Counted from the stretch's first letter, positions 1-64,000 are shown. The stretch is DNA of 64,000 nt from an uncultured virus (IMG/VR IMGVR_UViG_3300021446_000040) (IMGVR_UViG_3300021446_000040), one strand, 5' to 3'. The notes: generated by a model not told the origin, from the letters alone. Numbers and translations: made by a program.

Positions 1-1
1 G

Positions 2-1081
2 TTCGGCGCTGTCCGCCGCGCCCGCGTTAAACCGACCGTTATCAACGGCAATGGTGTAGGTGGTTTCCGAACTTGGGGAAATGTCGCCAGGCAGGTTATC
101 AGTCGGGTTGTGCAACGAACTGCCGTCGCCGGCGGCTATAGTCGCTTCGACCGTGTAGCCGCTGTTTTGATCACCCGAAACCAGTACCAGATCGACGCCG
201 CTTGGCATGGCCGTCCGGTCGCCTTTGATCATGGAAGCACGGCGCAAATCAAGCGTTTCGTTGCTTGTTAACGTGTAAGATACGATCACAGCCGCCTGGC
301 CTTGTACCGCTGTCCCGGTTTCATTCCATGAAGTCAATCCATCGATCCGGTTTCCAAATTCGTTTTCAGTGACCGGGTTGTAGGACGTGTTCGACAGTGT
401 GACCGTGTTCGCTTTATCCAAAAGCGGCGCGGTTCCTTGGATGTTTAGATTTCTAAAGTTGGGCGCGCCGCCTACAGGAATAGTAAATATATTACTGTTA
501 TTAGCCGCGTCGCGGACAATTACCCGGTTATTATTAGACTGATAAAATATTTGAATCTTTTTGTCGTTTCCAAGCCCGACTTTAACATCGTCGCGGATTC
601 GTCCGGTGTCTTTTATATCAAAACCGCCGCTAATCGAAATAAGACCGCCCGCAAAACTAATACTTTTATCGCCTGGCCCGTTAATGTTCGTGTTTACAAT
701 TGACAGACCGCCGTTGTTACCCCCGCCAGGCACGGTTTCAATGCTTCCCACTATATCGGTCATAAACCGCGAAACCCACGAATCAGTAGATTCGTCGTTG
801 AACCACAGCGACGGGCTGTTTGTACTGGTATCTACTGTGATCCGGGGATAATCAGCGCCGGCCTGGTTCGGCTTTCCGTCGGTTACGTAGACTGAATTAT
901 CGTCTGTCCATTGCCATAGGGTCTGTAGCGCGTCGGCATAATTCAGGTCGTCTAAGTTGACCGAACCGCCGTCTACGTCGTTGTAGTTTTCAAGCGGGCC
1001 GTCCCTGCCGTCCGGCTGTGCTTCTTGGCCGTCAGCGGCGACCGGCAGGCCAGTTCGCTGTAGTCTGTAGCCTTTAGGCAT
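2..1081 (-). CDS. Putative tail protein, partial (runs off window start)
   Basis: ATG at 1081 (MPKGYRLQRTG...) opens a frame towards the window edge; it is the next minus-strand gene after the tape measure gene. Absent from the ORF track, presumably because it is truncated. Confidence 0.6.
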   Translation of the reverse strand, partial: MPKGYRLQRTGLPVAADGQEAQPDGRDGPLENYNDVDGGSVNLDDLNYADALQTLWQWTDDNSVYVTDGKPNQAGADYPRITVDTSTNSPSLWFNDESTDSWVSRFMTDIVGSIETVPGGGNNGGLSIVNTNINGPGDKSISFAGGLISISGGFDIKDTGRIRDDVKVGLGNDKKIQIFYQSNNNRVIVRDAANNSNIFTIPVGGAPNFRNLNIQGTAPLLDKANTVTLSNTSYNPVTENEFGNRIDGLTSWNETGTAVQGQAAVIVSYTLTSNETLDLRRASMIKGDRTAMPSGVDLVLVSGDQNSGYTVEATIAAGDGSSLHNPTDNLPGDISPSSETTYTIAVDNGRFNAGAADSAE

Positions 1082-1152
1082 AGGATAGTCTTATATGAAC
1101 TTGTTAGCCGCCTGGTTTTAAGGTTCGGCGGTCGCGCTTTCAGCGCGACGGC

Positions 1153-1199
1153 AATACGACAAGTTTATACCTATGTCCCTGTTGTAGCTAAATGCAATG
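1153..1199 (+). promoter_or_regulatory. Repeated viral promoter module (leaderless)
   Basis: AATACGACAAGTTTATAC, then CCCTGTTG, then CTAAATGCAATG ending at the start codon; the same layout recurs elsewhere in the window. Confidence 0.7.
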
Positions 1200-1799
1200 G
1201 ATCAAAACGGTCCGTCGTATGACAGCGCGGAAGTCGGCGATCGAATTACGGTCGAATACGCGACGCCTGAAGTCGAAGGTCGCGCCGGGATTAGTGGGGA
1301 AGTCGTTTCGGTTGACGTTAACGCGAACGGTGAACGGATGAACACCTGGTTTGTGGGCCAGGACGGTTACTTGTACCGGCTTGGCGCGAACTACATGGAA
1401 AGAACACCGGAACGCTACAGCGTTCAAGCCGCAAAGCAACAGCTTCGCGGGTTTGACCAAGATAAAATCACAACGTCGCTAATGCGGATTGATCGGTTCG
1501 ATGAACCGAACCAAGCGTACTGTTCGGTTGAAGTCGTCTACGTCGAACCGCAAGACGAAAACGACGACTACGATCGCATGACCGACTACGAACTACAAGC
1601 CGCCGCGCTACAAGAAGCGCGCGAAGGCACGCTTTCGGAAGCGTTCGACGCGCTGTTAGAACGCCAAGAACAGACACACGCGGATTTCATTCGCACACAG
1701 GCATACGAAAGCGACCGGCAAAGGGCCGATGAACTACGAATCAGGTCCGACCGCCTTCGCACAGGCCTGAAAGACGCGCTGGATCGGGCTAACGACTAA
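1197..1799 (+). CDS. Hypothetical protein (SH3-like N-terminus; C-terminus paralogous to 1828-2118)
   Basis: Acidic ORF behind a TATA module; GDRITVEY..GISGEV motif; ELQAAALQEAREG..EAFD shared with the next ORF. Confidence 0.8.
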   Translation: MDQNGPSYDSAEVGDRITVEYATPEVEGRAGISGEVVSVDVNANGERMNTWFVGQDGYLYRLGANYMERTPERYSVQAAKQQLRGFDQDKITTSLMRIDRFDEPNQAYCSVEVVYVEPQDENDDYDRMTDYELQAAALQEAREGTLSEAFDALLERQEQTHADFIRTQAYESDRQRADELRIRSDRLRTGLKDALDRAND

Positions 1800-1827
1800 C
1801 GACAGCTTTTTATTCGCGGTTGCCGTC

Positions 1828-2118
1828 GTGGGAAGTGTGATCTACGACCGCGACGAACTGAAAGAATTAGACGACCCGAAATTAGCCGCCGCCGCGTACC
1901 AAGAAGCGCGGGAAGGCCAGCAGGGGGAAGCGTTCGACGTAATGGTAAAGCGCCAAAAGTCCCTGCATGACCGTCTGTTTCGCATGAAAGCGGACGACTA
2001 CAGCCAGTTTTCACGCGACGCACTACGAACGCGCGCCGTTTTGCTGTTGCATACAACGACCATGGCGATAGAAATGGCGGACGAACACGCTGAAGAAAAC
2101 GAAAACAACGATGAATAA
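1828..2118 (+). CDS. Hypothetical protein, paralog of the upstream ORF C-terminus
   Basis: LAAAAYQEAREG..EAFD..KRQ..H motif. Confidence 0.7.
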   Translation: MGSVIYDRDELKELDDPKLAAAAYQEAREGQQGEAFDVMVKRQKSLHDRLFRMKADDYSQFSRDALRTRAVLLLHTTTMAIEMADEHAEENENNDE

Positions 2119-2329
2119 CAAGTCGAACCCCATGATAGCGCTACAGAACGATCCGGCGATCAAGGCAGTCGCGGCTACGAACGCCGGCGAAATCGTAGCG
2201 ACGCTTTCGGTCGAAACGGTTGACTACGAACAGGCAGGCGCTAAGATCGCCGAACGGGTAAGCGTGGACCTGGTTTTTGGCGGGGCGACCGAACGCGGCC
2301 AGCTTTACTTTCGACCGCGTTCATGGTAA
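2111..2329 (+). CDS. Small hypothetical protein, GEI...GRLYF family
   Basis: AGEIVATL..DYE..G..IA....RGQLYF. Confidence 0.75.
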   Translation: MNNKSNPMIALQNDPAIKAVAATNAGEIVATLSVETVDYEQAGAKIAERVSVDLVFGGATERGQLYFRPRSW

Positions 2330-2396
2330 TACGACAGGTTTATACGTGTGCCGCTATTCTGGTTAATCGTAGCGGGCGAAGCCCGCTACACAAACC

Positions 2397-2612
2397 ATGA
2401 ACGCAACGCAAACCGCCGTCGAAGAATTGGAAGCCGATCACAACGTGACTAATGTGTTCGTTACCCCTGCCGGTGAAATCAGGGTTGAAACGAACGTTAC
2501 GACCGCCGAACCCGCTACCGTCGGCGAATCCTTGGCCCGCTGGATCGACGCGGACGTTAGCTTTTCCCGCGCGTCGGCTTCGGGGCGACTGTACTTCAGG
2601 GTCAACGCATGA
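2397..2612 (+). CDS. Small hypothetical protein, GEI...GRLYF family
   Basis: PAGEIRV..VSFSR..SGRLYF; preceded by a TATA box and a hairpin leader. Confidence 0.75.
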   Translation: MNATQTAVEELEADHNVTNVFVTPAGEIRVETNVTTAEPATVGESLARWIDADVSFSRASASGRLYFRVNA

Positions 2613-2827
2613 ACGACGAACTAACGCGCGCCGCTGAAGCCGTCGAAGCTGTCCGAAACGACCCGGACGTTTACACCGCCTACGTTATGCCTGGCGGTGA
2701 AATAGAAGCTGTGGTCAAAGCGTCAACTGGTACGTACCGCGAAAAAGGCGAAACGATCGCCGCGCGCCTTGATCCAGTTGACTTTTCGCGTGTGAACCGG
2801 CACGGACGGCTGTACTTTACCGTCTAA
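2609..2827 (+). CDS. Small hypothetical protein, GEI...GRLYF family
   Basis: PGGEIEA..Y..GETIA..VDFSRV..HGRLYF; ATGA overlap with the previous ORF. Confidence 0.75.
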   Translation: MNDELTRAAEAVEAVRNDPDVYTAYVMPGGEIEAVVKASTGTYREKGETIAARLDPVDFSRVNRHGRLYFTV

Positions 2828-2838
2828 CCGCCGCGCTC

Positions 2839-5800
2839 TTAGTAATTATCCATATAGCTATCAAATTCATCGGCGAAGCCTTTAGCGGCTTCCCGGCCGG
2901 CTTCCCTACTGTCCGCGTTGATAGTGGGGTTCATGTTATATTCTACCACGTTGACAGTGCCGCCGCCTGCGGCCGCTGAAGCCGCCGCGCCAGGTGCTTT
3001 GTCCGCCATGCGCGCCAGCTTATCCATTTCGTTCGCGGTCGTCTTTTTAGCGTCGCGCATGGTCTTTTCGATCGGGCTTTCCATATCCCACTTGGCCAAG
3101 TAGTCGTTAACTTCCGTTATGGTATCAGGAATGATCGAATTGCCGACTACCGTATCTTGGAAGCTTTCAAACGGCTTTTTCGCCGCGTCAACCGCGCCCT
3201 GTACCTTGGACTTCAAATCTTCTTTCAGGCCATTCAGCGCGTTCACCGCTTTCTTTTTCAGCTTTTTCATCTGTTCCTTGGCCTGTTTTTTGAGCTTCTT
3301 GAACTTACGAACGACCAAGTTACGGGTTTCATCGGCGATTTTCTTCAGCCGGCGCTTGATCGAATCGTATATCTTGATCAAGCGCTCTTTCATCGTTTTC
3401 ATGGCCTTCGCTACCAGTTCCCGCAGTTTGCTAAACGCCTGGCTAACCCTATCCTTCGCCGTTTGTGCGGCCGTAATTATCTGTTCCTTGGCGGTCTGAA
3501 TCGCCGTGACAGCTTTTTCTTTCGCCGTCTGTGCGGCTGTAACGACGTTATCCTTCAGCGTTTGGAAGGCAGTGCTTACTTTGTCCTTGGCGTTTTGTGC
3601 CGCCGTCAGCACTTTGTCTTTTGCCGTCTGATAGGCTGTAATAGCCTTGTCTTTGGCGGTTTGTGCCGCAGTAGTTACCAGGTCCTTTAGCTCTTGGAAG
3701 CGGCTTGAAACTTGGTCTTTGATCGTCTGTGCCGCGTTCTGTAGCTTCGACCGGATGTTTTCGAACGCGGTAATTGCCTTTTGCTTCAGCGTATCGAAAG
3801 CCGTAAGTACCAGTTCCTTCGTCCGCGTAGCCGCGTCGGATACGCGCTGTTTAAGCGTGTTAAATGCGGACACGGCGCGCTGTCGGGCGTTATCAATCGC
3901 CGTGCGAATCAGCGACTTCAACTGCTGAAACGCCTGGCTAACGCGCGCTTTAATCCGCGTCGCCGCGTTCGTAAGTTTCTGTTTTATGCTGTTGAACGTC
4001 GTAATTAGACGACCCTTCAGCCGATCGAACGCTTTTTGCACAAGCGCCTTCGTTCGCGTCGCCGCGTTAGACACTTTTTGCTTCAGCGCGTTAAACGCCG
4101 TGACAGCCCGCGACCGTGCGTTATCAATCGCGGTCTGAATCAGCGATTTCAGCTTTTGGAAGGCCTGGCTAACGCGGGCCTTGATTCGGGTCGCCGCGTT
4201 CTGTAATTTTTGCTTGATCGCATTGAACGCTGTGATCACGCGCCCCTTCAGCGTGTTAAACGCCTTTACAACGCGGGCCTTCAGCCGTGTAGCCGCGTTC
4301 GTAACTTTCTGTTTGATAATGTTGAACGCGCGAATCGCGGCGCGTTTTGCCTTATCAATCGCGCCCTTGATCGCCGAAACCAGTTTGCCACCCCACTTCT
4401 TTATGAATTGGACGATAGCGTTGAATATATCCTTAACTATCGAACCAAAGATTAGTTCTTTGCCCCACTGGATGAACTTTTTGACCGCTTTTGACAAAGC
4501 GTCCGCGATAAAGCGAACCAGTTTGCCACCCCACTTAGATACGAAGCTAACGATGCCGTTAAGAATCCGCTTGCCAAGATCGATCATGCGGTTTAGGCCG
4601 CGTTCCCAATTTCCGTTCATAAGATCGATCGCGGTCTTAACAATCGTCGCCAGCGTATCGAACGCCGCGCCAAGCACGGACAGCAGGGTATCAGACACGA
4701 ACGCCGAAACCGCACGGACCTTATCTTGATGCCGCTGTAAGAACTTGGCGATTTCATTGACAACCGTTAGCACGACATTCGCCAGCGTGCGGAACGACGC
4801 GCTAACCGCAGTCACAAGCGCCGCGACTACGATCACTATGTCCCTTTTGTTATTTTCCCAAAACGTAGACAGCCGGGACAAGAAGGGCTGAATCACGGCT
4901 ATAACCGTGCTTTTCAGCGCCTTAAACGTGTTAACTATCGTCGTCTTGGCCAGTTCGATCGTAGACGCCCACTTTTTGCCTTCAGTTTGCCAGGCCAAAT
5001 TAACCGCTTGGCCGATAGCGTTTACGGCCTGTTTGAAACTTTGCTTGGCGCTTTTAAAAGTCTGTTTTATCCCGTCGATTATCTGCTGTGTAGTCGGAAC
5101 CAGGGGCTTTAGCTTGTTATTCCAAAACTGGTTTATCCCGTTAAGGGTCTGTCGGACGACGTTTTTAATTTCGCCCATATCGCCGTTGAACAGCGACTTT
5201 ATAGCCGACAGAACGGTTTGCGTTTTGCCCTGGATGTTACCCAAGTTCTTTTGCCAGGCGATCCACAGGCCGGCGATCGCCGCGACCGCCAGGCCGATCG
5301 GGTTAGTCAGCAGGCCGATCGCCGAACCAAGCGACCCGAACCGCGTGATTAGCGGGCCGATTCGCGCAAGAAGCGACCCGATAGACCCGGTTAGGCGCTT
5401 TCCGATGAACGTCGCCAGGCGTTGCATCGGCCCGATTATCCGCGACGCGGCCGAACGCACGCGCGACAGTTGGGGAACGAACGCCGCCGCCATGTTCTTA
5501 GCTGTCCGCAGTCCGACTAACAGGACGTTCTTGAACACACCGCCGGCAGTGCGTGCCTTCCCGACAAGTCCGCCCACGAAGCCAGTGACCCGGCTTACAA
5601 CGCTACCAAGCTTGGACGACGCGGACTGTGCCGCTTTCGTCTTTCCGGCCCACGAACCCAAGCTTTTCGTGCCGGACTTCAGCGACCCGACAAAGCGACC
5701 GCCGAACACGGGAACCAGGGTCGAAGCGACGAACGACCCGATGCTTTTCGCGGCCGGCAGTGCGCCGCCGGTAATGCCGGTCGCCAGGCTACTAAGCGCG

Positions 5801-7902
5801 CCGGTCACTGTTCCGGTTTTCACCGCCCACGTCGCCAGGACAGCGCCAAGCGCGCCGACTGCGGCCTTGTACGGTGTGATCGACGTGCTAACTTGATCGA
5901 TCGCCGCGCTAACGTCCGTGCCGTGCGTGCGCCAAAGCTGTGTCGCGCTTTGTAAGATGTTTGTGACTGTCGTTAGAACAGTCGAAACCGCGTTGCGAAT
6001 CGTAGATACGACCGTCTGATACGGTTGCTGTACTGCGGTTTTCGTATCGACGCCGTGTTTATTCCACGCGCTTGTCAGCGCGTTTAGCGCGTTCGTAACC
6101 GGCGGTCGGATCGCCTGGATAGTGCTTAGGACAGTCGCTTTTACGCTGTTGTACGCGCCGCGCGCGCTTCCGATCAACGCCTGGCCGTGTGCGTCCCAAG
6201 CCTGTGTGATACCTGTTAACGCGGCCGAAACGATAGCGCCAAGTCCGCCGACTACCGTTTTGATTATCTTCGTAACGGTCGAAAACGTGTTACGAACGGT
6301 TTGAATTATTTGATCGCCATTCGCACGCCAGTAGTCAGCGAACGCAGTCAAATACTGGCGCGCCGTCTGAAACGCGCCTTTGATCCGCGACCCGATAGCC
6401 GTCTGTAGCGTCTGTACCAAGCTGGCCGTCCGCTGTTCGACGCCGGACGACATACCGCCAAAGGCAGAACGGAAGTCAGACAGTACCATAGACGCGACCG
6501 AAAACGCCTGTTGCATGGTCGCGGTGAACTGGCTTTCTATGATGCTAACAAGCCCCATGGTCGCCGTGCGTATGCCGGCGAAATTGCTATTCCACGCCGC
6601 GCCAAGGCCAGCGACCGCCGCCGCGACAGCCGTTACAGGCGCGGCCAGCGCCGCGACAGCGCTACCGAACGCGACTACGCCTGTTGCTACCATCGTACCC
6701 GAAAGCGCTGTTACAGCCGCCGTCAACCCGGCTATCGCGCCGGTCACAAGAATCACCGCGCCCGGCACACCGTTCATGGCCGAATTAAAATTAGCGAAGG
6801 CATCAATGCCGGACTTAACCGCGCCAAGCACGCCTTTGACCGCCGGCAGGAAAACCGACCCGGTTTGCTGTCCGACCGTTGTGATCGTATTCTTCAATAG
6901 CTGAAGCTGTGCTTTCGCCGTGTCCGCCTGGATCGCAAATTCCCGCTGTAGGCTTGTGCCTTCTTCGAACGACGAATTTGCGGTTTTCATGGCGCTGTTT
7001 ACGCCGTCTAAGTTTTGGCCAAGTTTCGATAAGGTCTGTCGGCTGTAGGTAGAAAACACCTTCCGCAGATTGTTACCCTTTTCAGTATTGTTAGCCATTT
7101 CCTTAGCCATTAATTTGAACAGACCCGTCGGGTCGTTCTTCCGCATACTTTTAAATTCGCTAACGTTCATGCCAAGCGCGTTAGCAAATTTTTCGACCTT
7201 CTTCGGGTTCTGAAGTTCTTGGGACACGCGCCGCAGGCCGCTACCCGCGCGCCGCGCTGAATTAGACACTTCATTCATAGCGCCGGACAGTCCGACAATT
7301 TCGGTTGTCGAAAGCCCAAGCTGTGTCAACGAACTGCTGGCCTTTAGCATCGTCTGTGTGATTTCAGACGACGAAGCGGCCGCGTTGTTAGAAAGTTCGT
7401 TGATAGACGACCCAAGGTTTTCCATCTTGGGGATGGGCGTTTCTGTAAGTGTGGCCAGTTTTGCGAATGATTTTCCAGCTTTTTGTGCAGAAAGATCGGT
7501 AGCGGTGGCCATTTTTCCAACTACCCGCGTAAAGTTTTCGATATTGTCCGCGCCTTCTATTCCGAAACGCCCCGCCTGTTCTGTCAAACTGGCCAATTCA
7601 GCAGTTGTTAGGGGAATTTCTTGTGCCATTTGCTGAATTTGGCCGGTAAGTTTAGAAGCGGTCGCTTCTGAAGTCACTTTTTGGACTTCCGCCATTTTTG
7701 CTTCGAAGTCAGCGGCCGCCTGTGTCGCCTTGGCTATACCGCCGGCAGAAACAGCCGCCATAGCGCCGCCTAAACCGACTGTCGCGGCCTTAAAACTTTT
7801 CGAAGCGCTGGCCGCTTGTGCAAATTCCGAAGCCACAGCTTCGCCGCCGGACGCTGTAAGGCGCGTTTCTATGGTATTTGCACCGCCGGAACCGCCGAAC
7901 AT
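2839..7902 (-). CDS. Tail tape measure protein
   Basis: 1687 aa, Ala/Gly-rich and helical; TP901-type N-terminal region (AADFEAKMAEVQKVT), LLTNPIGLAVAAIAGL motif, 11/22-residue helical repeats; lies downstream of the tail tube and chaperone genes. Confidence 0.93.
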   Translation of the reverse strand: MFGGSGGANTIETRLTASGGEAVASEFAQAASASKSFKAATVGLGGAMAAVSAGGIAKATQAAADFEAKMAEVQKVTSEATASKLTGQIQQMAQEIPLTTAELASLTEQAGRFGIEGADNIENFTRVVGKMATATDLSAQKAGKSFAKLATLTETPIPKMENLGSSINELSNNAAASSSEITQTMLKASSSLTQLGLSTTEIVGLSGAMNEVSNSARRAGSGLRRVSQELQNPKKVEKFANALGMNVSEFKSMRKNDPTGLFKLMAKEMANNTEKGNNLRKVFSTYSRQTLSKLGQNLDGVNSAMKTANSSFEEGTSLQREFAIQADTAKAQLQLLKNTITTVGQQTGSVFLPAVKGVLGAVKSGIDAFANFNSAMNGVPGAVILVTGAIAGLTAAVTALSGTMVATGVVAFGSAVAALAAPVTAVAAAVAGLGAAWNSNFAGIRTATMGLVSIIESQFTATMQQAFSVASMVLSDFRSAFGGMSSGVEQRTASLVQTLQTAIGSRIKGAFQTARQYLTAFADYWRANGDQIIQTVRNTFSTVTKIIKTVVGGLGAIVSAALTGITQAWDAHGQALIGSARGAYNSVKATVLSTIQAIRPPVTNALNALTSAWNKHGVDTKTAVQQPYQTVVSTIRNAVSTVLTTVTNILQSATQLWRTHGTDVSAAIDQVSTSITPYKAAVGALGAVLATWAVKTGTVTGALSSLATGITGGALPAAKSIGSFVASTLVPVFGGRFVGSLKSGTKSLGSWAGKTKAAQSASSKLGSVVSRVTGFVGGLVGKARTAGGVFKNVLLVGLRTAKNMAAAFVPQLSRVRSAASRIIGPMQRLATFIGKRLTGSIGSLLARIGPLITRFGSLGSAIGLLTNPIGLAVAAIAGLWIAWQKNLGNIQGKTQTVLSAIKSLFNGDMGEIKNVVRQTLNGINQFWNNKLKPLVPTTQQIIDGIKQTFKSAKQSFKQAVNAIGQAVNLAWQTEGKKWASTIELAKTTIVNTFKALKSTVIAVIQPFLSRLSTFWENNKRDIVIVVAALVTAVSASFRTLANVVLTVVNEIAKFLQRHQDKVRAVSAFVSDTLLSVLGAAFDTLATIVKTAIDLMNGNWERGLNRMIDLGKRILNGIVSFVSKWGGKLVRFIADALSKAVKKFIQWGKELIFGSIVKDIFNAIVQFIKKWGGKLVSAIKGAIDKAKRAAIRAFNIIKQKVTNAATRLKARVVKAFNTLKGRVITAFNAIKQKLQNAATRIKARVSQAFQKLKSLIQTAIDNARSRAVTAFNALKQKVSNAATRTKALVQKAFDRLKGRLITTFNSIKQKLTNAATRIKARVSQAFQQLKSLIRTAIDNARQRAVSAFNTLKQRVSDAATRTKELVLTAFDTLKQKAITAFENIRSKLQNAAQTIKDQVSSRFQELKDLVTTAAQTAKDKAITAYQTAKDKVLTAAQNAKDKVSTAFQTLKDNVVTAAQTAKEKAVTAIQTAKEQIITAAQTAKDRVSQAFSKLRELVAKAMKTMKERLIKIYDSIKRRLKKIADETRNLVVRKFKKLKKQAKEQMKKLKKKAVNALNGLKEDLKSKVQGAVDAAKKPFESFQDTVVGNSIIPDTITEVNDYLAKWDMESPIEKTMRDAKKTTANEMDKLARMADKAPGAAASAAAGGGTVNVVEYNMNPTINADSREAGREAAKGFADEFDSYMDNY

Positions 7903-8024
7903 AAGAAGCTATGACTAACTGGCTATCCGGCGCAAATAAAAAGTCGGACAAGCGCGCGGCGCTGTAGACAGTTACGCAAACTGATAAGCGCGACGAACGC
8001 GGCGCTTTCAAGCCGGCCAAGGCA

Positions 8025-8198
8025 GTGTCGGAAAAGTGATACAGCCTTTCGAAGCGGCGCTGAAATGACCGCGAAAACTGGCGGTCGCTACAACCCCCCG
8101 ATTTGAAATCGGCCGGTAGAAGCGATTTCTGTCCTAAAAAACATTTCAGTCCCTTCTACAATAGGGGAAGATTTCAGCCGCCGCTGTCAGCGGGGGTT
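8025..8198 (-). repeat. Dispersed intergenic repeat, copy A
   Basis: Reverse complement contains CCCCTATTGTAGAAGGGACTGAAATGTTTTTTAGGACAGA (identical in copies B and C), CCGATTT-C-AAATCGG+GGGG and TGTATCACTTTTCCGACAC. Confidence 0.92.
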
Positions 8199-8300
8199 GT
8201 AACAATCAGACTGCGGATAGTAATTTTTGTGCTGATTTTAATAATGCGTATCAGTATTCGAACACGCCAGCTTTATACAAGCGCCGCGCTATGCTAACGC

Positions 8301-8621
8301 ATGGCCGAAGCCGAAGGCAACTTACGACCGACGCCGAATGGCACGCACGAAGAAGCGCCGTCAGACCTTCCCCCGCTAATGTGGGATATGTATTATGGCC
8401 CCGGAAGTCAGCCGGATAACCCGCACTTGTATAGCGACTACGAACGCGCCGAACGGGGCGTTTACCTTTTCCGGCTGTACGAATACGAACAGAAACGGCC
8501 TGCGTTCCGGCTTGAAATCCTACACAGCGGGGAACAAGTTTTACAGGAAAAATACAACGACATAGACGCCGCAAAAGACCGCGCCGAAAAATTCGTCGCT
8601 GATAACTGCGTGTGGCTATGA
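8301..8621 (+). CDS. Small hypothetical protein, W..F.I..F.L..AK.RA family
   Basis: TTTATA ~25 nt upstream; RPTPNGTHE and AKDRAEKFVADN motifs shared with 9139-9438. Confidence 0.75.
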   Translation: MAEAEGNLRPTPNGTHEEAPSDLPPLMWDMYYGPGSQPDNPHLYSDYERAERGVYLFRLYEYEQKRPAFRLEILHSGEQVLQEKYNDIDAAKDRAEKFVADNCVWL

Positions 8622-8839
8622 ATTGGGAACCATACGAAGCCTACAGCGCCGCAGGTCGGTTCTTCCCCGAACGCTGGCGATCGCATACTGGCGGATGGAT
8701 ATTCAAGATCAAAAAGCGCCGGCGCGATTCTAAGTTTCAGCTAATGGTTCGCAAACAGGGACACACCTACTTTGTGCATCGTTCGTCGTGGGACGACCTG
8801 GATACCGCGAAAGACAAGGCGGACAAGTTACTTGTATAG
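8618..8839 (+). CDS. Small hypothetical protein, same family
   Basis: WIFKIKKR..DSKFQLMVR..G...DLDTAKDKA; ATGA overlap. Confidence 0.7.
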   Translation: MNWEPYEAYSAAGRFFPERWRSHTGGWIFKIKKRRRDSKFQLMVRKQGHTYFVHRSSWDDLDTAKDKADKLLV

Positions 8840-8893
8840 CCGTTGCCGTGAAACAACGGGTTTATACGTGTCCGGCTGTTCTGCCTAATCGCA

Positions 8894-9139
8894 ATGGTCG
8901 AAAAAACCGCGCCGGTGATCGCACAGGCATACGCCGAACACATTTCGGGCAATGGCGTCCGCGCCAAGACGTTCCCGAACGGAACGATAGAAGTTCAATT
9001 CGACAACCTTAGCACGAATGAAATCGAATTTGGTAGCGTGAACGATAAAGGCTGGCACGCTACCGCTGTCAATTTCGAAGAAAACTACGTCGTGCTAAAG
9101 TGCTACAACCGTCGGCCCTACATGGAAGGCGAATACTAA
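8894..9139 (+). CDS. Hypothetical protein
   Basis: Leaderless ATG directly after the GTTTATAC..CCGGCTGTTC..CTAATCGCAATG module. Confidence 0.7.
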   Translation: MVEKTAPVIAQAYAEHISGNGVRAKTFPNGTIEVQFDNLSTNEIEFGSVNDKGWHATAVNFEENYVVLKCYNRRPYMEGEY

Positions 9140-9438
9140 TGCACGAAAACCCGCGCCCTTCGATCGACGGAACGCACGAAGATATGCCGGCAGGTGTAAA
9201 GCCGCTAACCTGGCGGTCGCGCGAAGCTTGGGACGGGGGAGCTTTTTACCCGCGATACGAAGCCGCCGACCGCGAATGGGCGGTCTTTACGATCAAAGAA
9301 CGGAAGAAAGATAGCCAGGTCGTCTTAGCCGTGCGGGAAAACGGCTTTCGCCTGGTTCACAAATCGGTACATGAAGGCGCGCGCTACGCACAGCAACGCG
9401 CTGAAAGGTTCGTCGCCGAAAACGAACTGTTCGGTTAG
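9139..9438 (+). CDS. Small hypothetical protein, same family as 8301-8621
   Basis: RPSIDGTHE..W..FTIKERKKDSQVVLAV..AQQRAERFVAEN; TAATG overlap. Confidence 0.75.
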   Translation: MHENPRPSIDGTHEDMPAGVKPLTWRSREAWDGGAFYPRYEAADREWAVFTIKERKKDSQVVLAVRENGFRLVHKSVHEGARYAQQRAERFVAENELFG

Positions 9439-10061
9439 TGACCGTCCGGCAGGTTCCGCGCGCCGCTTATTTTGTCGCTGAAGCGTCCGTCCGAACTATT
9501 GCCGCCGCTTTCCCTGCGTTCTTCCGCCTGTTCATGGCCTTGGTAGATCGCCTGGATTTCACCCATGGTTAGGCTGTATACATCGGTTGGGTTCGTATGG
9601 TATTCGCCGACATACTGAAACAAGAAGTCGGCTAAATCTTCGTCTACGTCTTTGCGCCTACCGCCGTCGTTGTGCTGTGCAAACATCGAATCGTCGCGCA
9701 CTACGTCGCTGTAGTCGTCGTCTGATTTATCAAGCCGGTTGCTTTCTTGATCCGACCGCTGTAGCAGGTCGCTTGCAAGCAAAATACCGTATTCAAGCGC
9801 GGGCGGAACGGATGGGTGCATACCGGCGACCTGGCCGGGCGTACACGGCGCTATGCAGGCCGAAAACAAGTCGGCAAACATCCCGATCGTTCTTGGCCTG
9901 TTTTCGTAGAATTGGACGATATTGCCGTATTCAAGCGGGGCCATGGCTACGCAGTAGCCGCTTGGGTATTCTACTGGCCGCTTGATCACTTTTCCGTTCG
10001 GCGCGTGTGCGGCCTGGCCGTGTACTTCTATCTGTCGGTAATCGACGCCTTTCAGTTTCCC
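9435..10061 (-). CDS. Tail assembly chaperone, -1 frameshift extension (gpT-like)
   Basis: The frame is open from the G GGA AAC slippery heptamer (10055-10061) into ORF 9435-9989; DVYSLTMGEI motif near the C-terminus. Confidence 0.7.
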   Translation of the reverse strand, partial: GKLKGVDYRQIEVHGQAAHAPNGKVIKRPVEYPSGYCVAMAPLEYGNIVQFYENRPRTIGMFADLFSACIAPCTPGQVAGMHPSVPPALEYGILLASDLLQRSDQESNRLDKSDDDYSDVVRDDSMFAQHNDGGRRKDVDEDLADFLFQYVGEYHTNPTDVYSLTMGEIQAIYQGHEQAEERRESGGNSSDGRFSDKISGARNLPDGH

Positions 10062-10465
10062 GCCGCTTCGTCCGCTTCCGCGACCGAAACCGATCCGTCA
10101 GCGTTCGACGTAACATCGACGCCTTCGCCCATTAGACTTTCAAGCAACCGCGCGGGCAACAGCGGTTGCATGGACCGAACACCGTCGCCGTCCAAGCCCG
10201 AAAAGTCGGGCGAAATGAAGCGATCGCGGAAAATTTCAGCCATTTGGTCGGGCGTAATTTCCGCTTCGCCGTCGTCCGCGTTTCGCTGTCGCGCCGCGTT
10301 TTTCTTGCGGTAGTGATCGATGTATCCAAAGTCGATTAGTTCCGCGACGGCCTTACCCATGCCTTCGACCGCGACTTCTTGCGGCCCCTGTTCCTGTTGG
10401 GTATCTTCGAACGAAAAATCAGCTTCTAAGTTGTCTACTTCAGCCGGAACGTCAGAATCAGGCAT
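10052..10465 (-). CDS. Tail assembly chaperone (gpG-like)
   Basis: Lies between the tail tube and tape measure genes; ends GCG GGA AAC TGA. Confidence 0.75.
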   Translation of the reverse strand: MPDSDVPAEVDNLEADFSFEDTQQEQGPQEVAVEGMGKAVAELIDFGYIDHYRKKNAARQRNADDGEAEITPDQMAEIFRDRFISPDFSGLDGDGVRSMQPLLPARLLESLMGEGVDVTSNADGSVSVAEADEAAGN

Positions 10466-10562
10466 ACGCTATCAAAAAGCCGGGCGCATTTAAACGTTAG
10501 ATCGCCGCGTCAGACGACAAAGCGCCAGGTTTATACAGCCGCCGCTGTTCGGGGTAATTGCA

Positions 10563-10697
10563 ATGCGAAAACTTTGCAAAAGGCCGTTTTGCCCGAACCA
10601 GAACCGCGCGAACAGACACGGGGTTTCGCCCATGCGTGCCCCGTTCTGTTCGGAAAACTGTTTTCAGATTTGGCGCGAAGAAAACTTAGAAGATTAG
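10563..10697 (+). CDS. 44-aa Cys-rich micro-protein (CxxxxC...CxxxC)
   Basis: MRKLCKRPFCPN...PFCSENCFQIW after the GGTTTATAC..CCGCTGTTC..TAATTGCAATG module; below the ORF-track cutoff. Confidence 0.6.
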   Translation: MRKLCKRPFCPNQNRANRHGVSPMRAPFCSENCFQIWREENLED

Positions 10698-12103
10698 GGG
10701 CTTGGAAGCGTCGCGTCTAAGCCGGCTTCGCCGGACATAACGACGTATTCCATATCAAGCGCGTTTTCGCCGCCGGACCGCGACCGCGTGCTTTCCGACA
10801 TAGGCGCTTCAGGCGCTTCAAGGCGAAGGCTACCTTCCCGGTCGAACAGAACCGCAGTATCGATGTTTTCCTGTGCGGCCGTCTGTTTCATGCCCCTGTG
10901 CGAAAGCGTTTCGCCGTCGGCTTCCATGGTAATTTCGCCGGCCCGCATACCAGGAATGGCGCGCTGTTCGCGGCTTTGGTTAGTCGGCTGTTGCTCCGAA
11001 TCGTTTTCGATGCTAACTTCTATGTTGGTAACAGCGCCGGCGGCTTCGAACGCCCTGCCGTAAGGTCGTTCGACCAAAGCGTTCCCGACCGCAAAGTAGT
11101 CCGTGCCGGTGATCGTACCGCCGATTTCCGTGCCGTGACTACCGGACTGGCCAAGCGCGGGAACGCCATAGTCGCCGTGTGTGTTGTTATAGAAGCTGTA
11201 CCCGTACAGAACCGCAAGAAGCTGGCCTTCGCTATACGTGTCTACATTTCCGTCGCCGTCCGTATCTTCAGCGGTTGCTTCGTAGACAAGAATATCGCCC
11301 ATGTGATCGGCGACTTCATCGTTGCTGTTGACACGGACTTCAACCGATTCGATGCTTTCGAATTGGGACGTAGTACCTACGATCGCACTGGCGTCGTCCG
11401 CGTCCAAAGTGACCGTTTCGGTAGTGTTCGCGTCGTTCGATTCGATTTCCACACGCAGTTCGGTATCTGCGTTATTCGACGCGGCCATATCGCCGTGTTC
11501 GACCGCTTGGACGGCCAGGTACGTGTTCGAATCCGGCTGATCGATCTGGTAAGGCCGGCCCGTCTGACACATTAGCGTGCTTTCGCACGACCAATAGACT
11601 TCTTCCGGGTCGCCGGTAAGGGTCGCTTCGTCTACAGTCGCGCCGCGTGCGACCGTATACAAGTGCGTGTGTCGCGGCTGTGCGTTTCCGTCGTTTAGAT
11701 AGTCGAAATGAACGGTACTTTCCGCTTTGTTAGGGAACCCGTCGCCGTCCTTGTAGGTCTTGGCGGTTTCGACCAAGGTCACACTACCCGGCTGATGCCC
11801 GACTGCGGAACGGAACAGGCCATACGCGGACAGGTCGCTAAGTGTGCCGTCAGCGTTGTAGAACCAGCGCTGAAGGTCATACGTCAGCGTTAGCTCGTTT
11901 TCTTCCAAGCCGGCGGCATACGCATGATCGTGCTGGCCAAGGCCGTCCTTTTCGACCGAATCCGGGCCAAATTCGGGTTCAAATTCGGTGATCCGGTCCG
12001 AAACAAGCTGAAAGTCCGGGTTCGTGGGCGTAACGCCTTCCGTATCTTCTTCGACAAATTCGATACGCGAAGGTCGTAGACCCCCTTCGATGTTAGCTGG
12101 CAT
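10694..12103 (-). CDS. Major tail tube protein
   Basis: N-terminal RIEFVEEDTEGVTPTNPDF motif as in haloviral tail tubes; follows the neck genes; AAGGAG upstream. Confidence 0.8.
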   Translation of the reverse strand: MPANIEGGLRPSRIEFVEEDTEGVTPTNPDFQLVSDRITEFEPEFGPDSVEKDGLGQHDHAYAAGLEENELTLTYDLQRWFYNADGTLSDLSAYGLFRSAVGHQPGSVTLVETAKTYKDGDGFPNKAESTVHFDYLNDGNAQPRHTHLYTVARGATVDEATLTGDPEEVYWSCESTLMCQTGRPYQIDQPDSNTYLAVQAVEHGDMAASNNADTELRVEIESNDANTTETVTLDADDASAIVGTTSQFESIESVEVRVNSNDEVADHMGDILVYEATAEDTDGDGNVDTYSEGQLLAVLYGYSFYNNTHGDYGVPALGQSGSHGTEIGGTITGTDYFAVGNALVERPYGRAFEAAGAVTNIEVSIENDSEQQPTNQSREQRAIPGMRAGEITMEADGETLSHRGMKQTAAQENIDTAVLFDREGSLRLEAPEAPMSESTRSRSGGENALDMEYVVMSGEAGLDATLPSP

Positions 12104-12157
12104 TGATATGTTTGCTCCTTATCGAAGATAGATTAATCGCCGCGTTTAAACGCTGGC

Positions 12158-12670: not shown

Positions 12671-12673
12671 GGT

Positions 12674-13057
12674 TTAGCTTTCGTCCGTGTACCGCACGCA
12701 GTCACATTCAAGAATCCCGCTTTGCCGGTCAACGACGCGCAAGATTTCATACCGATCGCCGCCCACTGGTTCCGGCCGGTCGTCCTGAATTACGTCGTCC
12801 GGCGCTGGATATACGTCAGCCGCGTTTAGTTCCGCGACACTTAGCCTGATTGTAAGGTCGCTTTCTACCGTATCGCCGTCCGGGTTAACGACCTGGCTTG
12901 GCTGATTCGTGACTTCTACCCGCATACTAACCGCCGTTTTCGTCGTATCGTACTGCGGTCGCCCGCTTTCGGGGTGTGTGCCGGTCTGTTCTTTGCGAAT
13001 CAGCATACCAGGGAAGGCAAATTCGTCGTGGACTTCTTGAACCGCGTCGGTATCCAT
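12674..13057 (-). CDS. Putative head closure protein
   Basis: Beta-rich, DDVI..RYEILRV..ILECDC pattern; position in the neck cluster. Confidence 0.55.
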   Translation of the reverse strand: MDTDAVQEVHDEFAFPGMLIRKEQTGTHPESGRPQYDTTKTAVSMRVEVTNQPSQVVNPDGDTVESDLTIRLSVAELNAADVYPAPDDVIQDDRPEPVGGDRYEILRVVDRQSGILECDCVRYTDES

Positions 13058-14824: not shown

Positions 14825-14829
14825 GGCCA

Positions 14830-52931: not shown

Positions 52932-52981
52932 GGTCTTACGAACGCCGCCAAGTACGAAAGGTTAACGGTCGCTTTCGCGCC

Positions 52982-53042
52982 GCTGAAATCGGCCCCTATT
53001 GTAGAAAGGACTGAAATGTGATTTAGGGCTAAGATCGGCTAA
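52982..53042 (+). repeat. Dispersed intergenic repeat, copy D (divergent, cut by N gap)
   Basis: GCTGAAATCGGCCCCTATTGTAGAAAGGACTGAAATGTGATTTAGG. Confidence 0.85.
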
Positions 53043-60607: not shown

Positions 60608-63600
60608 TTATTCCTGGTTGAAATAGTCTAAGGTGTTCAACATGGTCACAAAGCCGGCGACCAATTCGGCGCGCGTTAGTTCGGACGGATCGCCCTGCGG
60701 GATTTCATCGGGAACGTCCGGCAGGTCCGGCGCGTCCTTGGGCGGTTCCGGNNNNNNNNNNNNNNNNNNNNNNNNNNNNNNNNNNNNNNNNNNNNNNNNN
60801 NNNNNNNNNNNNNNNNNNNNNNNNNNNNNNNNNNNNNNNNNNNNNNNNNNNGATTCGCCAGGCACGCTAATCCCATCGGGCCGGCGTAGTTCGCGGCTAC
60901 CCGTGTAGTCGTTCCCGTCGATCCACACGTTGATTTCAGGCGGGGCAATGATGTTTGTAACCGACCCTTCGATAATGAAGGCGTCGCCGCCATTCAGCGC
61001 TAAGACGCCGTGAATCGCCGCCTGGCTGTCCGGGTTGATAATTTCGTCGTTGTCGTCCGCCTTTCTATCTTCTTGTGCGGGCGCGTCGGTTTCGACCTTG
61101 TACGCTTCCCATCCGGCCGGGTCGCCGCGTTCATCTTCAGGAACCCACTGGTTCCCGAACAGGTAGACCCTGCTGGTTTGGACGTATTCTTCGCCGCCGA
61201 CTTCAATAGTCAGCGCCGGGTCGCTTTCGATGTTAACGATTTCACCCGTAACGAAGAAGTCGTCGTCCGAATCGCCGGGAACCTGGCCCTTGATCGTAGC
61301 GTTCCCGTCGTTAAAGACGATGTTATCCGAATTGCCCGACAGTCCGCCTAAGCGGGCGTTACCCGTGACTTCAATGGTGTAAGACAGTTGATCGGTTGTA
61401 CTGCCGTCGCCTTCGACGTAGATTCGGGTTTCATCTTCCGACGGCCCTTCGGGGTCGTCCGGCACTTCCGGCGGTTCGACCGGAACAGTCGGGTCGGTTT
61501 CGTCCGGCTGTTCTGGTTCGGGGCGATCGGGGGTTTCGGGTTCTTCGACCGGCGCGGTGCTTACGGGGTCGCGCGGTTCGGTCGAAGGTTCTTCGACTTG
61601 ATCCGGGGCGTATTCCACGCCGTCTACGTCGGTTTCAAAGTCCGCAACGCAGTCGCGGATTTCCAAGTCGTCGCGGCCAAGGTCAAAGGCATCGTCGCCG
61701 TCTACGTCGCCGCTGAAGTGACAGCCTTCCACAAGAACGCCCACGTCGCCCGACATTCCGCTTTCTTCTACGCGAAGGTGTGGAAGCTGGCCGGCGGTTT
61801 TCACCCGGCAGTTCCGCACTGTAGCGCGTCCGGCTTCGTCGTGAATGGCGATCGCCGCGTTACCTGGCGACCCGCCTTCGCGGTAGGTAACGTCACAATC
61901 TTCGACAAGACAGCCGTGCCGGTCGCGCACGCGAATCCCGCGACTGTTTTCGCCCGACTGATTACCTTCCGACGTTTTCACCCGTTCGTCTACAACGATC
62001 GTTGCTTCGCGGGCGACCGAATCCGTGCTACCGATCCGAAGGTTCGCTACGTTGCTGTTCGTAAACTTCCCGCCTTCGACTACAACCCTGCCGTCGTTGC
62101 CATAGTCGCGGCCTGGATCGGAGCCATAGACTGCGTTATTCGTGAAACGACCCATTTCACAGTCACGCAGGAAAACGGTGCCTTCGTGCGACGAACTAAC
62201 AAGAATACCGTTCGTGTCCGTCCCATCTTCTTCCGTGCCGCTGATTTTACACTGTGAAATCAGGCCCGTTTCGCCGCTGTTAACGTCGGTTGAAAAGCCT
62301 TTGGATTCAGGCGGGTACTGGCCGCGATTTCTAATATGCGAAACGACGAACGTTTCGCCTTCGGCTTGCAAGCGTCCGCCGTATCCGTCCTGGCTGAAGT
62401 CGAATACGAAATTACTAAACGCCCACGTATCGCCGTTGATAGTGATAAAGTATTCACCGGCGTTGTCCCGCGAACTGTTAGGTTCAAGAACGACTGTTTC
62501 GCCGGGTTCGCCGATAATGGCACAGTCGTTCATTTCAAGGCTAAGGTAGTCGGTCTGATATTCGCCGGCCGGAACGACTGTCACCGTATCGGTCGCGTTC
62601 GATGCTTCTTGTAGCAGGCCGGTAATGTCGTCGCCGTTATCTACGTCTAAGACGTTCTGGTTCGACAAGTCGGCCAGTGCTTCGTACTGTTCGTTCATAA
62701 TCGTTAATGGGTTAATTCCTGTGCTGTTGTCGCCGCCGCTACTTTCGTCGTCCGAATCGTCGTTTTCTACCGGAAGCGCGCCGTCCGTATCCGGTATCAG
62801 GTCGCTTGTGTAGCCGTTTTCCATAACGGATACGTCTAACGTATCGTCCGCCGACATTTTGAGCTGTCCGCGAATGTAATACGTATCCTGGCCGCCTTTG
62901 ACGTAGCCGGTCGCGGCCTGTTGCATGGCTTTGTCGCCTGTGTTCGCCATAGCGCCGCGTCTTACGTCGTCCGCTTCGATCCGGTAATGACCTTCATTAT
63001 CGTCGCCGCCGATTTTTACCCTGTGCCAAAGCGGTTCGGGCGCACTGTCGTCGCCGCTTCCCACGTGTGCGCGGCCGCCAGGTCCGAAGGCGTTATCACG
63101 GTTGATCCAGTGTACCTTGTCAAAGCCTTTTACGCCGTCCGTATCTTCCGTGCTGTACGGTTTGTCCTTGTCTTTGTATTCGTCTAATTCTAAGTCGCCG
63201 CCGCGATTTTCAGCCCACGTGTACCTATCTTCTAACCCCTGGTTAGTTTGCATGATCGCCGAACCGTTCCCGTCGTTCGACGTTTCGGGCGGTTCGGGCG
63301 GAACGTCGCCGGTGTAGTCGAAATGAACCGCGTAGACTTCATGGTAGTCGATCGGCGTTCCCCTGAAGTTAAACACTTCATTGACGCCGCCTTCAGCGTT
63401 GTTTTCGTTACCTTGTACGGTAATGTGGTGCCATACGGTTTTCTTCGAACCGGGTCGGTGTACGTCCAAGACGTGCGAAAACGGCGCGTTAGGGCCGCAC
63501 GTATGATACGCGATTTCCGTACAGTTGTCCCGACCGCCGTGTTCGACGTGATGCCGGCAGTTGTCGGTATAATTACCTATTACGACAGTCCGATCGGCCC

Positions 63601-64000
63601 ACGAACCGTCGTCTGTCATGCACGCGATACCGTACCCTAAGTGATCGAAGGCCGCGTTATACGACCTGTTATTGATAGCGCGGCATTTCTTGCCGCGAAA
63701 CATGATATTTCCATAGGTAAAGCCCGAAACGTCACATTCGTAGACGGTCGTCCGGGGGCTTTCGGACATAAGCCCAACTAAGATATGGCGTTCGCGGTAA
63801 TCGCCGGTTCCGTTCGTATAATCGTCGTCTACGATCGTACCGTCGGCGTGCGGCCCGCGAAGGTTGATACCGACACAAACCTGGCTGTCGTTGCTGATAA
63901 AGTTGATTTGCCAGGTTCCCCACCCCCAAGCGTCTTCAGTGTCTTGTACCAGGGTCGCGCCGTCTGAAATCAGGTTGCCCCTGATTTGGTATTCACGGTT
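60608..64000 (-). CDS. Large right-handed beta-helix protein (tailspike/depolymerase-like), 5'-partial, contains N gap
   Basis: Frame stays open upstream of ATG 63769 to the window end; TVVVPAGEY, parallel beta-helix repeats, YxIEVxG..GxxDxF Ig-like modules and PE-rich linkers. Confidence 0.65.
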   Translation of the reverse strand, partial: NREYQIRGNLISDGATLVQDTEDAWGWGTWQINFISNDSQVCVGINLRGPHADGTIVDDDYTNGTGDYRERHILVGLMSESPRTTVYECDVSGFTYGNIMFRGKKCRAINNRSYNAAFDHLGYGIACMTDDGSWADRTVVIGNYTDNCRHHVEHGGRDNCTEIAYHTCGPNAPFSHVLDVHRPGSKKTVWHHITVQGNENNAEGGVNEVFNFRGTPIDYHEVYAVHFDYTGDVPPEPPETSNDGNGSAIMQTNQGLEDRYTWAENRGGDLELDEYKDKDKPYSTEDTDGVKGFDKVHWINRDNAFGPGGRAHVGSGDDSAPEPLWHRVKIGGDDNEGHYRIEADDVRRGAMANTGDKAMQQAATGYVKGGQDTYYIRGQLKMSADDTLDVSVMENGYTSDLIPDTDGALPVENDDSDDESSGGDNSTGINPLTIMNEQYEALADLSNQNVLDVDNGDDITGLLQEASNATDTVTVVPAGEYQTDYLSLEMNDCAIIGEPGETVVLEPNSSRDNAGEYFITINGDTWAFSNFVFDFSQDGYGGRLQAEGETFVVSHIRNRGQYPPESKGFSTDVNSGETGLISQCKISGTEEDGTDTNGILVSSSHEGTVFLRDCEMGRFTNNAVYGSDPGRDYGNDGRVVVEGGKFTNSNVANLRIGSTDSVAREATIVVDERVKTSEGNQSGENSRGIRVRDRHGCLVEDCDVTYREGGSPGNAAIAIHDEAGRATVRNCRVKTAGQLPHLRVEESGMSGDVGVLVEGCHFSGDVDGDDAFDLGRDDLEIRDCVADFETDVDGVEYAPDQVEEPSTEPRDPVSTAPVEEPETPDRPEPEQPDETDPTVPVEPPEVPDDPEGPSEDETRIYVEGDGSTTDQLSYTIEVTGNARLGGLSGNSDNIVFNDGNATIKGQVPGDSDDDFFVTGEIVNIESDPALTIEVGGEEYVQTSRVYLFGNQWVPEDERGDPAGWEAYKVETDAPAQEDRKADDNDEIINPDSQAAIHGVLALNGGDAFIIEGSVTNIIAPPEINVWIDGNDYTGSRELRRPDGISVPGEXXXXXXXXXXXXXXXXXXXXXXXXXXXXXXXXXXPEPPKDAPDLPDVPDEIPQGDPSELTRAELVAGFVTMLNTLDYFNQE

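Follow-up and report, generated by a model that had tools for sequence, protein, structure and literature searches.

Actively maintained loss of the trinucleotide GAG/CTC from the genome of an uncultured virus and its closest relatives

Results

GAG and CTC are nearly absent from the window

The genome of the uncultured virus IMGVR_UViG_3300021446_000040 has had about 97% of its GAG and CTC trinucleotides removed by natural selection on DNA. Of the window, which is the whole stretch of 64,000 nt analyzed here, 63,700 bases are called and the rest is made up of three 100-N runs; only 12 GAG and 33 CTC (45 sites) are left in the window. A first-order Markov model predicts 652 GAG and 846 CTC (~1,499 in total), and base composition alone (zero order) predicts 909 and 1,262 (~2,170 in total). 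The observed/expected ratios (O/E) under the first-order model were 0.018 for GAG and 0.039 for CTC; the second-lowest trinucleotide, GCA, stood at 0.66, and the most over-represented one, CAG/CTG, reached 1.5. Such composition-corrected under-representation is what restriction-site avoidance produces. An initial annotation, made by reading the sequence alone, had estimated about 40 sites against roughly 2,000 expected, which is close to the computed values; its G+C estimate of ~57% was too high, as the window has 55.2%, flat from end to end. Overall, we regard the pattern as a real and strong case of very-short-word avoidance that is actively maintained, switches between lineages, and sits within an extreme anti-restriction genome.

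The surviving sites are spread evenly along the window (0-6 per 4-kb bin), with no island at normal density. Most of them (32 of 45, 71%) lie in GAGC/GCTC, in line with the three quarters estimated initially, followed by GAGA/TCTC (9), GAGT/ACTC (3), and GAGG/CCTC (1). The only CCTC starts at position 32943, exactly where it had been read by eye, and the corresponding GAG (32944-32946, minus strand) lies directly after the portal stop codon inside AAGGAGGTG, a string that resembles a Shine-Dalgarno sequence and holds the single GAGG. Another surviving GAG (34623-34625, minus strand) bridges the start codon of the portal gene and its second codon (ATG AGC). Both sites are also found in L006, a strain described below. 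In the contigs from runs X1 and X2, TTC stands in place of the surviving CTC at 22649, implying that this survivor is not fixed in the population.

Selection acts on DNA rather than on codon choice

Codon counts were made on a greedy longest-ORF set, an uncurated annotation of 99 open reading frames (ORFs) that covers 92% of the window and encodes an Asp/Glu-rich proteome. Glu is written as GAA 1,328 times and as GAG 17 times, and CTC makes up 7 of 1,306 Leu codons, as the initial annotation had noticed for both amino acids. Against phase-specific Markov expectations, sense GAG is present at 17/390, 3/118, and 9/157 (observed/expected) in phases 0, 1, and 2, and sense CTC at 7/268, 2/123, and 2/184, respectively. 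Between genes, GAG stands at 1/48 and CTC at 4/61, with 5 sites left of ~109. Whatever the codon phase or orientation, and between genes as well, the depletion is thus 20- to 90-fold, which is the frame- and strand-independent pattern of restriction-site avoidance at the DNA level. Counts near expectation or a loss confined to in-frame codons would have spoken against the initial claim, and neither was seen, codon junctions and intergenic DNA being depleted as well.

The purge is achieved through codon choice that is conditioned on neighboring codons. After a codon ending in G, Ser is encoded by AGY 7 times and by TCN 256 times, compared with 441 and 342 times elsewhere; after a codon ending in C, TCN occurs once and AGY 145 times. 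Likewise, Arg is written as AGR after a G-ending codon in 0 of 408 cases, GGA stands before a G-starting codon in 2 of 548, and GCT stands before a C-starting codon in 1 of 385. Together with the depletion across phases, strands, and intergenic DNA, these neighbor-dependent codons bear out the initial view that selection acts on double-stranded DNA.

To see what stands in place of the missing sites, we compared the window with L001, a relative introduced below. Nine gene pairs were tried, of which five were orthologous and four were dropped for want of similarity. The five genes hold 97 GAG and 72 CTC in L001 and 4 and 1, respectively, in the window. GAG in L001 corresponds to GAA in the window in 42 of 74 cases and to GAC or GAT in 14, in-frame CTC corresponds to CTT (17), CTG (7), TTG (3), or CTA (2), and xCT Cxx corresponds to xCG Cxx in 10 of 16. 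The replacements are varied and mainly synonymous, a pattern that neither a single mutational route nor a base-calling error would create.

The purge is maintained in diverged strains

Two independent IMG/VR contigs represent diverged strains. L006 is a 7.1-kb contig from an independent assembly and is ~92% identical to the window. It contains 8 GAG/CTC against 161 expected, 6 of the 8 at positions shared with the window. The two sequences differ by 684 substitutions. Random placement of these, with their spectrum kept, would create 65.6 ± 7.9 sites (minimum 43, 500 trials), and yet each sequence has just 2 private sites in aligned columns. L107, a 9.2-kb contig that is 97% identical to the window, contains 10 GAG/CTC against 220 expected; here, 278 substitutions separate the sequences, with 30.3 ± 5.3 new sites expected and 6 found that are private to L107, a net gain of 6. 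With ~66 and ~30 new sites expected and only a few seen, the purge is actively maintained and is upheld by ongoing purifying selection. The young private sites fall in GAGC, the least depleted context, in 7 of 10 cases. Moreover, contigs from four runs of three studies (2016, 2018, and 2022) cover positions 20000-39999, mostly at 90-99+% identity, and the agreement between independent assemblies indicates that the loss is not an assembly artifact.

Related lineages have been purged of other words

A search of a large protein collection with the capsid protein returned four relatives at 97, 79, 61, and 43% identity, and the portal protein yielded further ones. They fall into four lineages. Lineage A consists of the window, L006, and L107, all purged of GAG/CTC (O/E 0.03-0.05). 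Lineage B consists of L001 (5.2-kb IMG/VR contig, 1-5211; capsid 78% and ~69% nucleotide identity) and L007 (9.4-kb contig, 1-9397; ~69% nucleotide identity, portal 69-72%, TerL 68%), and it is purged of CAG/CTG, with 0 of ~241 expected in 14.6 kb. Its GAG/CTC O/E is 1.5, L001 alone carrying 152 GAG and 120 CTC. Lineage C consists of L002 (20.9 kb of LMAX01000005.1, 1-20876; capsid 60%) and L109 (21.4 kb, 1-21380), in which GNGAG/CTCNC is absent and GAG/CTC O/E is ~0.55. In L002, none of 317 GAG has G at -2, T at -2 is rare (0.32), and C at -2 is enriched 2.4-fold. Lineage D is represented by L108 (17.4 kb, 1-17359; tail protein 59% identical), with GATC at 1/38 and a partial avoidance of GAGC. 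Its GAGC/GCTC count is 49/105 and its CTAG count 0/35; GAGC/GCTC is also the context that is best tolerated in the window. CTAG is missing from all four lineages. As L006, L007, and L109 carry the same metagenome number, three purge signatures coexist. The contigs L003-L005 and L103-L106 were distant or unrelated (24-35% identity), showed no purge, and were excluded from the lineage comparison, and searches with TerL alone and with the helicase gave no further relatives.

Neither the cultured haloviruses nor the haloarchaeal chromosome loci that were sampled are depleted. In Hardycor1, HATV-2, HF2, HGTV-1, and HVTV-1 (first 45-50 kb of each), GAG/CTC O/E ranges from 0.96 to 1.3 and no trinucleotide falls below 0.5. 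The window therefore lies far outside the range of these five cultured haloviruses, and with L001 and L007 at 1.5, the loss is specific to its lineage. That relatives have been purged of other words goes beyond what was noticed initially. In 80 of 80 haloarchaeal chromosome loci (~4.8 kb each, from nearly 80 genomes), GAG/CTC O/E is 0.87-1.12 and CAG/CTG O/E is 0.98-1.52.

The relatives were also compared for gene content. A Pfam scan of their lineage-specific ORFs detected only T5orf172 (L007) and YdjM (L002), and no nuclease gene co-varied with the purged word in 14.6 + 16.2 + 42 kb of relatives. The T5orf172/MUG113 (GIY-YIG-like) gene of L007 (1671-2033, plus strand) lies between TerS and TerL, where the window has no counterpart. 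Aligning the portal protein against genome contigs identified no relative, and a BLAST search of window positions 1-20000 against 401 genomes of the class, with two candidates scored per genome, identified no provirus and no convincing spacer. In the latter search, 96 genomes had short and weak matches, of which the best reached 76% over 89 nt; perfect matches were at most 25 nt long.

Many restriction-type words are missing from the window

In addition to GAG/CTC, the window lacks or nearly lacks a series of longer words (given as observed/expected), with CTAG at 0/148, GCWGC at 0/87, and CCCAG at 5/90. At least ten hexamers are absent or nearly so. They include the palindromes CCGCGG (0/63), GGCGCC (0/48), TCGCGA (0/39), ACGCGT (0/33), and GACGTC (0/25), as well as CTGAAC (1/62), ACTTCG (2/54), CTGATC (1/46), CCGTAG (0/41), CTTGAC (2/35), CATCGC (0/27), and GAAGAC (5/37). 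Interrupted palindromes are affected likewise, namely GAAN4TTC (0/37), GCCN5GGC (0/36.5), GACN3GTC (0/24), GACN6GTC (0/24), and GACN5GTC (2/24). A scan of 11,851 bipartite 3-N(3-9)-3 words, from which words with GAG/CTC were excluded, recovered interrupted palindromes but no clear asymmetric bipartite family. These wider losses point to restriction pressure on the virus.

Gene content and origin of the virus

Judging from its genes and the sources of its sequence, the window belongs to an uncultured tailed virus of haloarchaea from halite communities. It encodes the structural and packaging proteins of the Caudoviricetes: a tape measure protein (2839-7902), an HK97-type major capsid protein (PF25209; 15054-15917), which was the query that yielded L001 and L002, a portal protein (32957-34627, PHROGs), which yielded L006 and L007, the terminase subunits TerL (36405-37892) and TerS (37960-38496, PHROGs), and MuF. 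These are accompanied by archaeal-type proteins, namely TFIIB/TFB (51310-52167), a TrmB-type regulator, and a Hef/ERCC4-type nuclease with a helix-hairpin-helix domain (44044-44688, Pfam); MuF and TrmB were likewise assigned with Pfam/PHROGs. A superfamily 2 helicase (ResIII/Helicase_C; 41850-43814, Pfam) and a family B DNA polymerase (44819-47616) are also present, and all genes with coordinates in this paragraph are on the minus strand. By TerL, the closest named virus is Halogranum virus HGTV-1 (29.5%), and a megablast search of window positions 20000-28000 against named phages gave no match. The viral TFB is 32-40% identical to the TFBs of many genera of Halobacteria (80 haloarchaeal loci), which places the host in this class; since it is about equally far from all 80 loci, it does not single out a host genus.

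The public runs that hold the sequence are labeled as halite or rock metagenomes (14 rows, 5 studies), and three of the five studies hold at least one third of the sampled words of the window. No RNA run is listed among these holders, and no tRNA gene was found in the window. Judging from related contigs of ~64 kb, the window may represent a nearly complete genome. The polymerase was called as two ORFs on either side of the first N-run (46291-46390). The 55 nt flanking this run are identical (46236-46290 and 46391-46445), as would be left by a scaffold gap between overlapping contigs, and the polymerase is thus probably one uninterrupted gene.

Three kinds of repeats were observed. An intergenic repeat of ~55 nt is dispersed over the window (1151-1205, 2326-2380, 8848-8902, 10517-10571, 13471-13525, 27261-27296, and 29299-29353, with inverted copies at 25745-25785, 35388-35439, and 43757-43801). 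It probably serves the virus as a shared promoter, having a TATA-box-like GTTTATA core and a conserved downstream part that terminates in TAAATGCAATGG. Another dispersed repeat, 60-140 nt long, is found at the borders of gene blocks (8087-8227, inverted; 24112-24224; 34730-34877; 52979-53042) and also occurs in L006 and L107; a GAG survives in its copy at 24175, at a place that reads GAA in the copy at 34777-34839. Tandem repeats (231 nt; 99/132 nt) inside the tape measure gene (3784-4386, minus strand) coincide with matches to Apolipoprotein-like helical repeats.

Candidate nucleases and optional inserts

The initial annotation had named nucleases at 17058, 35498, and 38520, and none of the three held up. 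ORF 17016-17567 matches no family and no solved structure (Pfam, PHROGs, and a sequence search of structures). The same is true of ORF 35498-36154 (218 aa), which moreover is optional and missing from the equally purged L006. The protein of 455 aa encoded at 38520-39887 (minus strand, upstream of TerS) resembles a chymotrypsin-type serine protease (PHROG 20754 'protease', 1e-24, with weak matches to Streptomyces griseus proteases) and bears no resemblance to a nuclease. The nuclease-like genes that are present instead are the Hef-type gene above, a Cas4/RecB-like nuclease (PHROG 1706; 48016-48894, minus strand), an HNH endonuclease gene (29677-30192), and a gene at 25789-26292 (minus strand) for a helix-turn-helix protein that matches PHROG families labeled HNH endonuclease and is a candidate DNA-reading protein. 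The initial remark that no methyltransferase was seen stands: no methyltransferase family was detected among 107 ORF translations with Pfam or 59 with PHROGs, all drawn from the called bases of the window.

Two of these ORFs lie in optional inserts. An insert of 546 bp (29687-30232, minus strand) carries the HNH endonuclease gene and contains 1 GAG/CTC, and one of 721 bp (35435-36155, plus strand) carries ORF 35498-36154 and contains none, so that both are purged. L006 lacks both inserts, as do some contigs of run X4, and these presence/absence differences between strains look like mobile or homing elements.

Discussion

The explanation that we favor, and consider somewhat more probable than not, is extreme anti-restriction avoidance driven by a DNA-targeting defense that the host encodes and that reads GAG. 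For such a defense, GAGD would be the preferred form of the target, with a further preference for a G two bases upstream. The agent might recognize just 3 bp, as a restriction-like nuclease or nickase; alternatively, several bipartite (Type I-like) or longer-site enzymes that have GAG as their constant part might be at work. Each site would represent a small independent hazard, so that survival would scale as (1-p)^n and every loss would earn the same small premium. Under such a hazard, sites can be shed singly through synonymous, neighbor-aware codons, and a purge of ~1,500 sites would be reachable only if the hazard per site were small. The virus, in which no methyltransferase is detectable, seems to depend on absence of the target, as it does for CTAG, GCWGC, the hexamers, and the interrupted palindromes. 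Among the agents that we ranked, a host defense is the most likely because the genome bears the marks of many host restriction systems, because co-occurring lineages have lost different words, much as hosts differ in their repertoires, and because an external hazard makes it easier to move from one word to another than a self-encoded hazard would. The purging of sister lineages of CAG/CTG or GNGAG suggests that the specificity of the reader varies between host strains.

Several observations weigh against a host defense of this kind. No archaeal enzyme with a 3-bp GAG target was found in the literature on haloarchaeal modification, and the methylation motifs reported there, as far as the sources were accessible, have at least 4 bases (CTAG, CCTTG, GTCGAGG, GRAGAAG, GTAYCCG, GACCCC, and phosphorothioated GATC). 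Neither the portal alignment nor the search of positions 1-20000 against 401 genomes gave a provirus or spacer-like match that points to a host. The normal GAG/CTC content of all 80 chromosome loci means that a host reader would need self-protection, and none was observed. In addition, a small additive hazard per site is unlike classical restriction, and the relatives are short (5.2, 9.4, 7.1, and 9.2 kb), leaving room for a virus-borne determinant.

Such a determinant could be a frequent cutter or nickase that is encoded by the virus, reads GAG, and is used on GAG-rich host DNA or in the virus's own processing, the virus being spared by its siteless genome. We consider this unlikely. Phage HNH endonucleases are small, strand-specific nickases that read very short asymmetric words (sites of 3 to 7 bp; N.phiSal2 nicks GAG^CA and N.BceSVIII nicks S^RT; PMC3592412), and the window has HNH-type proteins at 25789-26292 and 29677-30192, just as L007 has its GIY-YIG-like gene between the terminase subunits. 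Moreover, host chromosomes are rich in GAG, the virus has no methyltransferase that we could find, and short-word purging recurs in this viral clade with a different word per lineage. For the phage nickases, the accessible part of PMC3592412 reports no genome purge. However, L006 is equally purged although it lacks both the optional HNH gene (29677-30192) and the optional ORF 35498-36154, and no nuclease gene co-varies with the purged word in the stretches of relatives compared above. A switch from CAG to GAG would also need a genome that was purged before the weapon became useful, and the many other missing restriction-type words already show that host restriction has shaped the genome. It is likewise doubtful that the loss arose as a ratchet, in which many longer or bipartite host sites share GAG (e.g., Type I sites such as GAG-N(x)-NNNN, with a variable second half-site). 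There would then be no single reader of 3 bp; each specificity would eliminate a few GAG, and every GAG lost would protect against all later specificities. EcoAI and EcoEI share a GAG half-site. In Type I enzymes of this kind, one protein domain recognizes precisely GAG, whichever way it is oriented on double-stranded DNA. REBASE-based predictions for Halobacteria list GAGN6VTGAC, GAGN4RTAA, and GAGN5TAC (PMC6471742). A ratchet would account for undepleted hosts and for a small hazard per site, and the avoidance of only GNGAG in lineage C indicates that longer GAG-containing targets exist in the community. However, Type I enzymes require a second half-site at fixed spacing, and avoidance of such sites alone should not remove 97% of GAG. 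Whichever of the four bases precedes or follows GAG, almost no sites are left, and CAG/CTG is wholly absent in lineage B, so that hundreds of distinct second half-sites would be needed over time; the bipartite scan yielded no clear asymmetric family. Within the host-defense reading, the data fit both a true 3-bp reader and a ratchet.

Less likely than either is a purge of protospacer-adjacent motifs (PAMs), in which a host type I CRISPR system would need GAG/CTC beside the protospacer and a genome without PAMs would be neither sampled nor targeted. Haloarchaeal type I-B PAMs are 3 nt long (PMC6546412), the hazard would be small and additive per site with both strands counting, and host genomes would require neither depletion nor modification. 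However, GAG/CTC is not among the seven I-B PAMs listed for H. volcanii in the accessible part of PMC6546412, none of which is depleted in the window. Type I-B systems accept several PAMs, so that losing one word would give no escape, GNGAG (lineage C) is atypical as a type I PAM, and positions 1-20000 gave no spacer-like match in 401 genomes. Least probable of all, to the point of being barely tenable, is that no DNA target was selected against and that codon bias, directional mutation or repair bias, an RNA-level nuclease, or a sequencing or assembly artifact produced the pattern. The commonest single replacements are indeed GAG to GAA and CTC to CTT, and RNA readers of 3 nt exist, e.g., MazF at ACA (PMC12151602). 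Codon usage is ruled out because out-of-frame positions, the antisense strand, and intergenic DNA are depleted to the same degree. A directional mutation or base-calling artifact is ruled out by the diversity of the replacements, which include wobble T-to-G transversions and several Leu codons, by the agreement of independent assemblies from three studies, and by two diverged strains that hold the purge despite the new sites expected in them. An RNA-level reader is ruled out because both strands are depleted: an mRNA interferase of the MazF type would leave a loss on the sense strand only, whereas sense GAG stands at 29/~665, sense CTC at 11/~575, and intergenic DNA is depleted as well.

The avoidance of words by Hardycor1 and by pL6 plasmids is the nearest precedent in the literature accessible to us. 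Hardycor1 lacks AGCT, CTAG, and TGCA and strongly avoids the asymmetric words CAGC (0.01), CATC (0.03), and CCAG (0.11) (PMC7911831), and pL6 plasmids avoid GGCC and CTAG (PMC11431627). In these haloarchaeal mobile elements, many palindromic hexamers are absent and the avoided set differs between viruses (PMC7911831, PMC11431627). The window resembles them in that CTAG and GGCGCC/GACGTC are absent and words of the CATC/CAGC type are avoided. However, the shortest words reported for them, in the parts of these papers that were accessible, have 4 bp, whereas a 3-bp word with ~1,500 sites has been lost here and sister lineages have lost a different 3-bp word. Hardycor1 itself, with a GAG/CTC O/E of 1.3, is unlike the window.

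Enzymes with comparably short targets are known from other systems. The chlorovirus nickases Nt.CviQII and Nt.CviPII have the sites R^AG and CCD, respectively. Chlorovirus cutters and nickases are virus-encoded, have targets of 2-4 bp, and act on host DNA, and R^AG overlaps with GAG and with CAG-type words. They differ in that a cognate methyltransferase is present and the viral DNA is modified rather than depleted of sites; over-expression of Nt.CviPII in E. coli required its cognate methyltransferase (PMC3592412). In the window, the pairing of a nuclease with a cognate methyltransferase was not seen in the Pfam/PHROGs scans, the sites are absent instead of being kept and protected by modification, and no homologous nuclease was found. 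The bacterial SspABCD-SspE phosphorothioate defense involves an asymmetric word of 3 nt, 5'-CpsCA-3', and is the only 3-nt defense-linked DNA motif that we found in the accessible literature (PMC9646914; PMC9239217), and a haloarchaeal phosphorothioate system, DndCDEA-PbeABCD, is reported at GpsATC. However, the Ssp word marks the host's own DNA with 10-15% of sites modified, its avoidance by phages is undescribed in these sources, and the words concerned are CCA and GATC rather than GAG. A search over main texts of the accessible literature turned up no description of a DNA phage or halovirus that has lost a trinucleotide throughout its genome.

Restriction-site avoidance is textbook biology, but for words of 4-8 bp. 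A 3-base word occurs about every 30-40 bp, and its purge amounts to ~1,500 coordinated choices at codons and junctions, together with the policing of new mutations. The losses of GAG, CAG, and GNGAG in three lineages of the same community argue for a real and evolving short-word reader that is absent from current catalogues. Returning to the host defense that we favor, its identification, or that of a viral counterpart, would bring a new type of specificity to archaeal defense or viral attack and could yield a useful frequent cutter. It is possible, although we suggest it tentatively, that halite haloarchaea or their viruses possess an undescribed family of ~3-bp enzymes whose target has switched between GAG, CAG, and GNGAG among co-occurring strains, each switch forcing a synonymous rewriting of the viral genome. 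If so, these viruses would be a natural read-out of an immune or attack system with a very short target.

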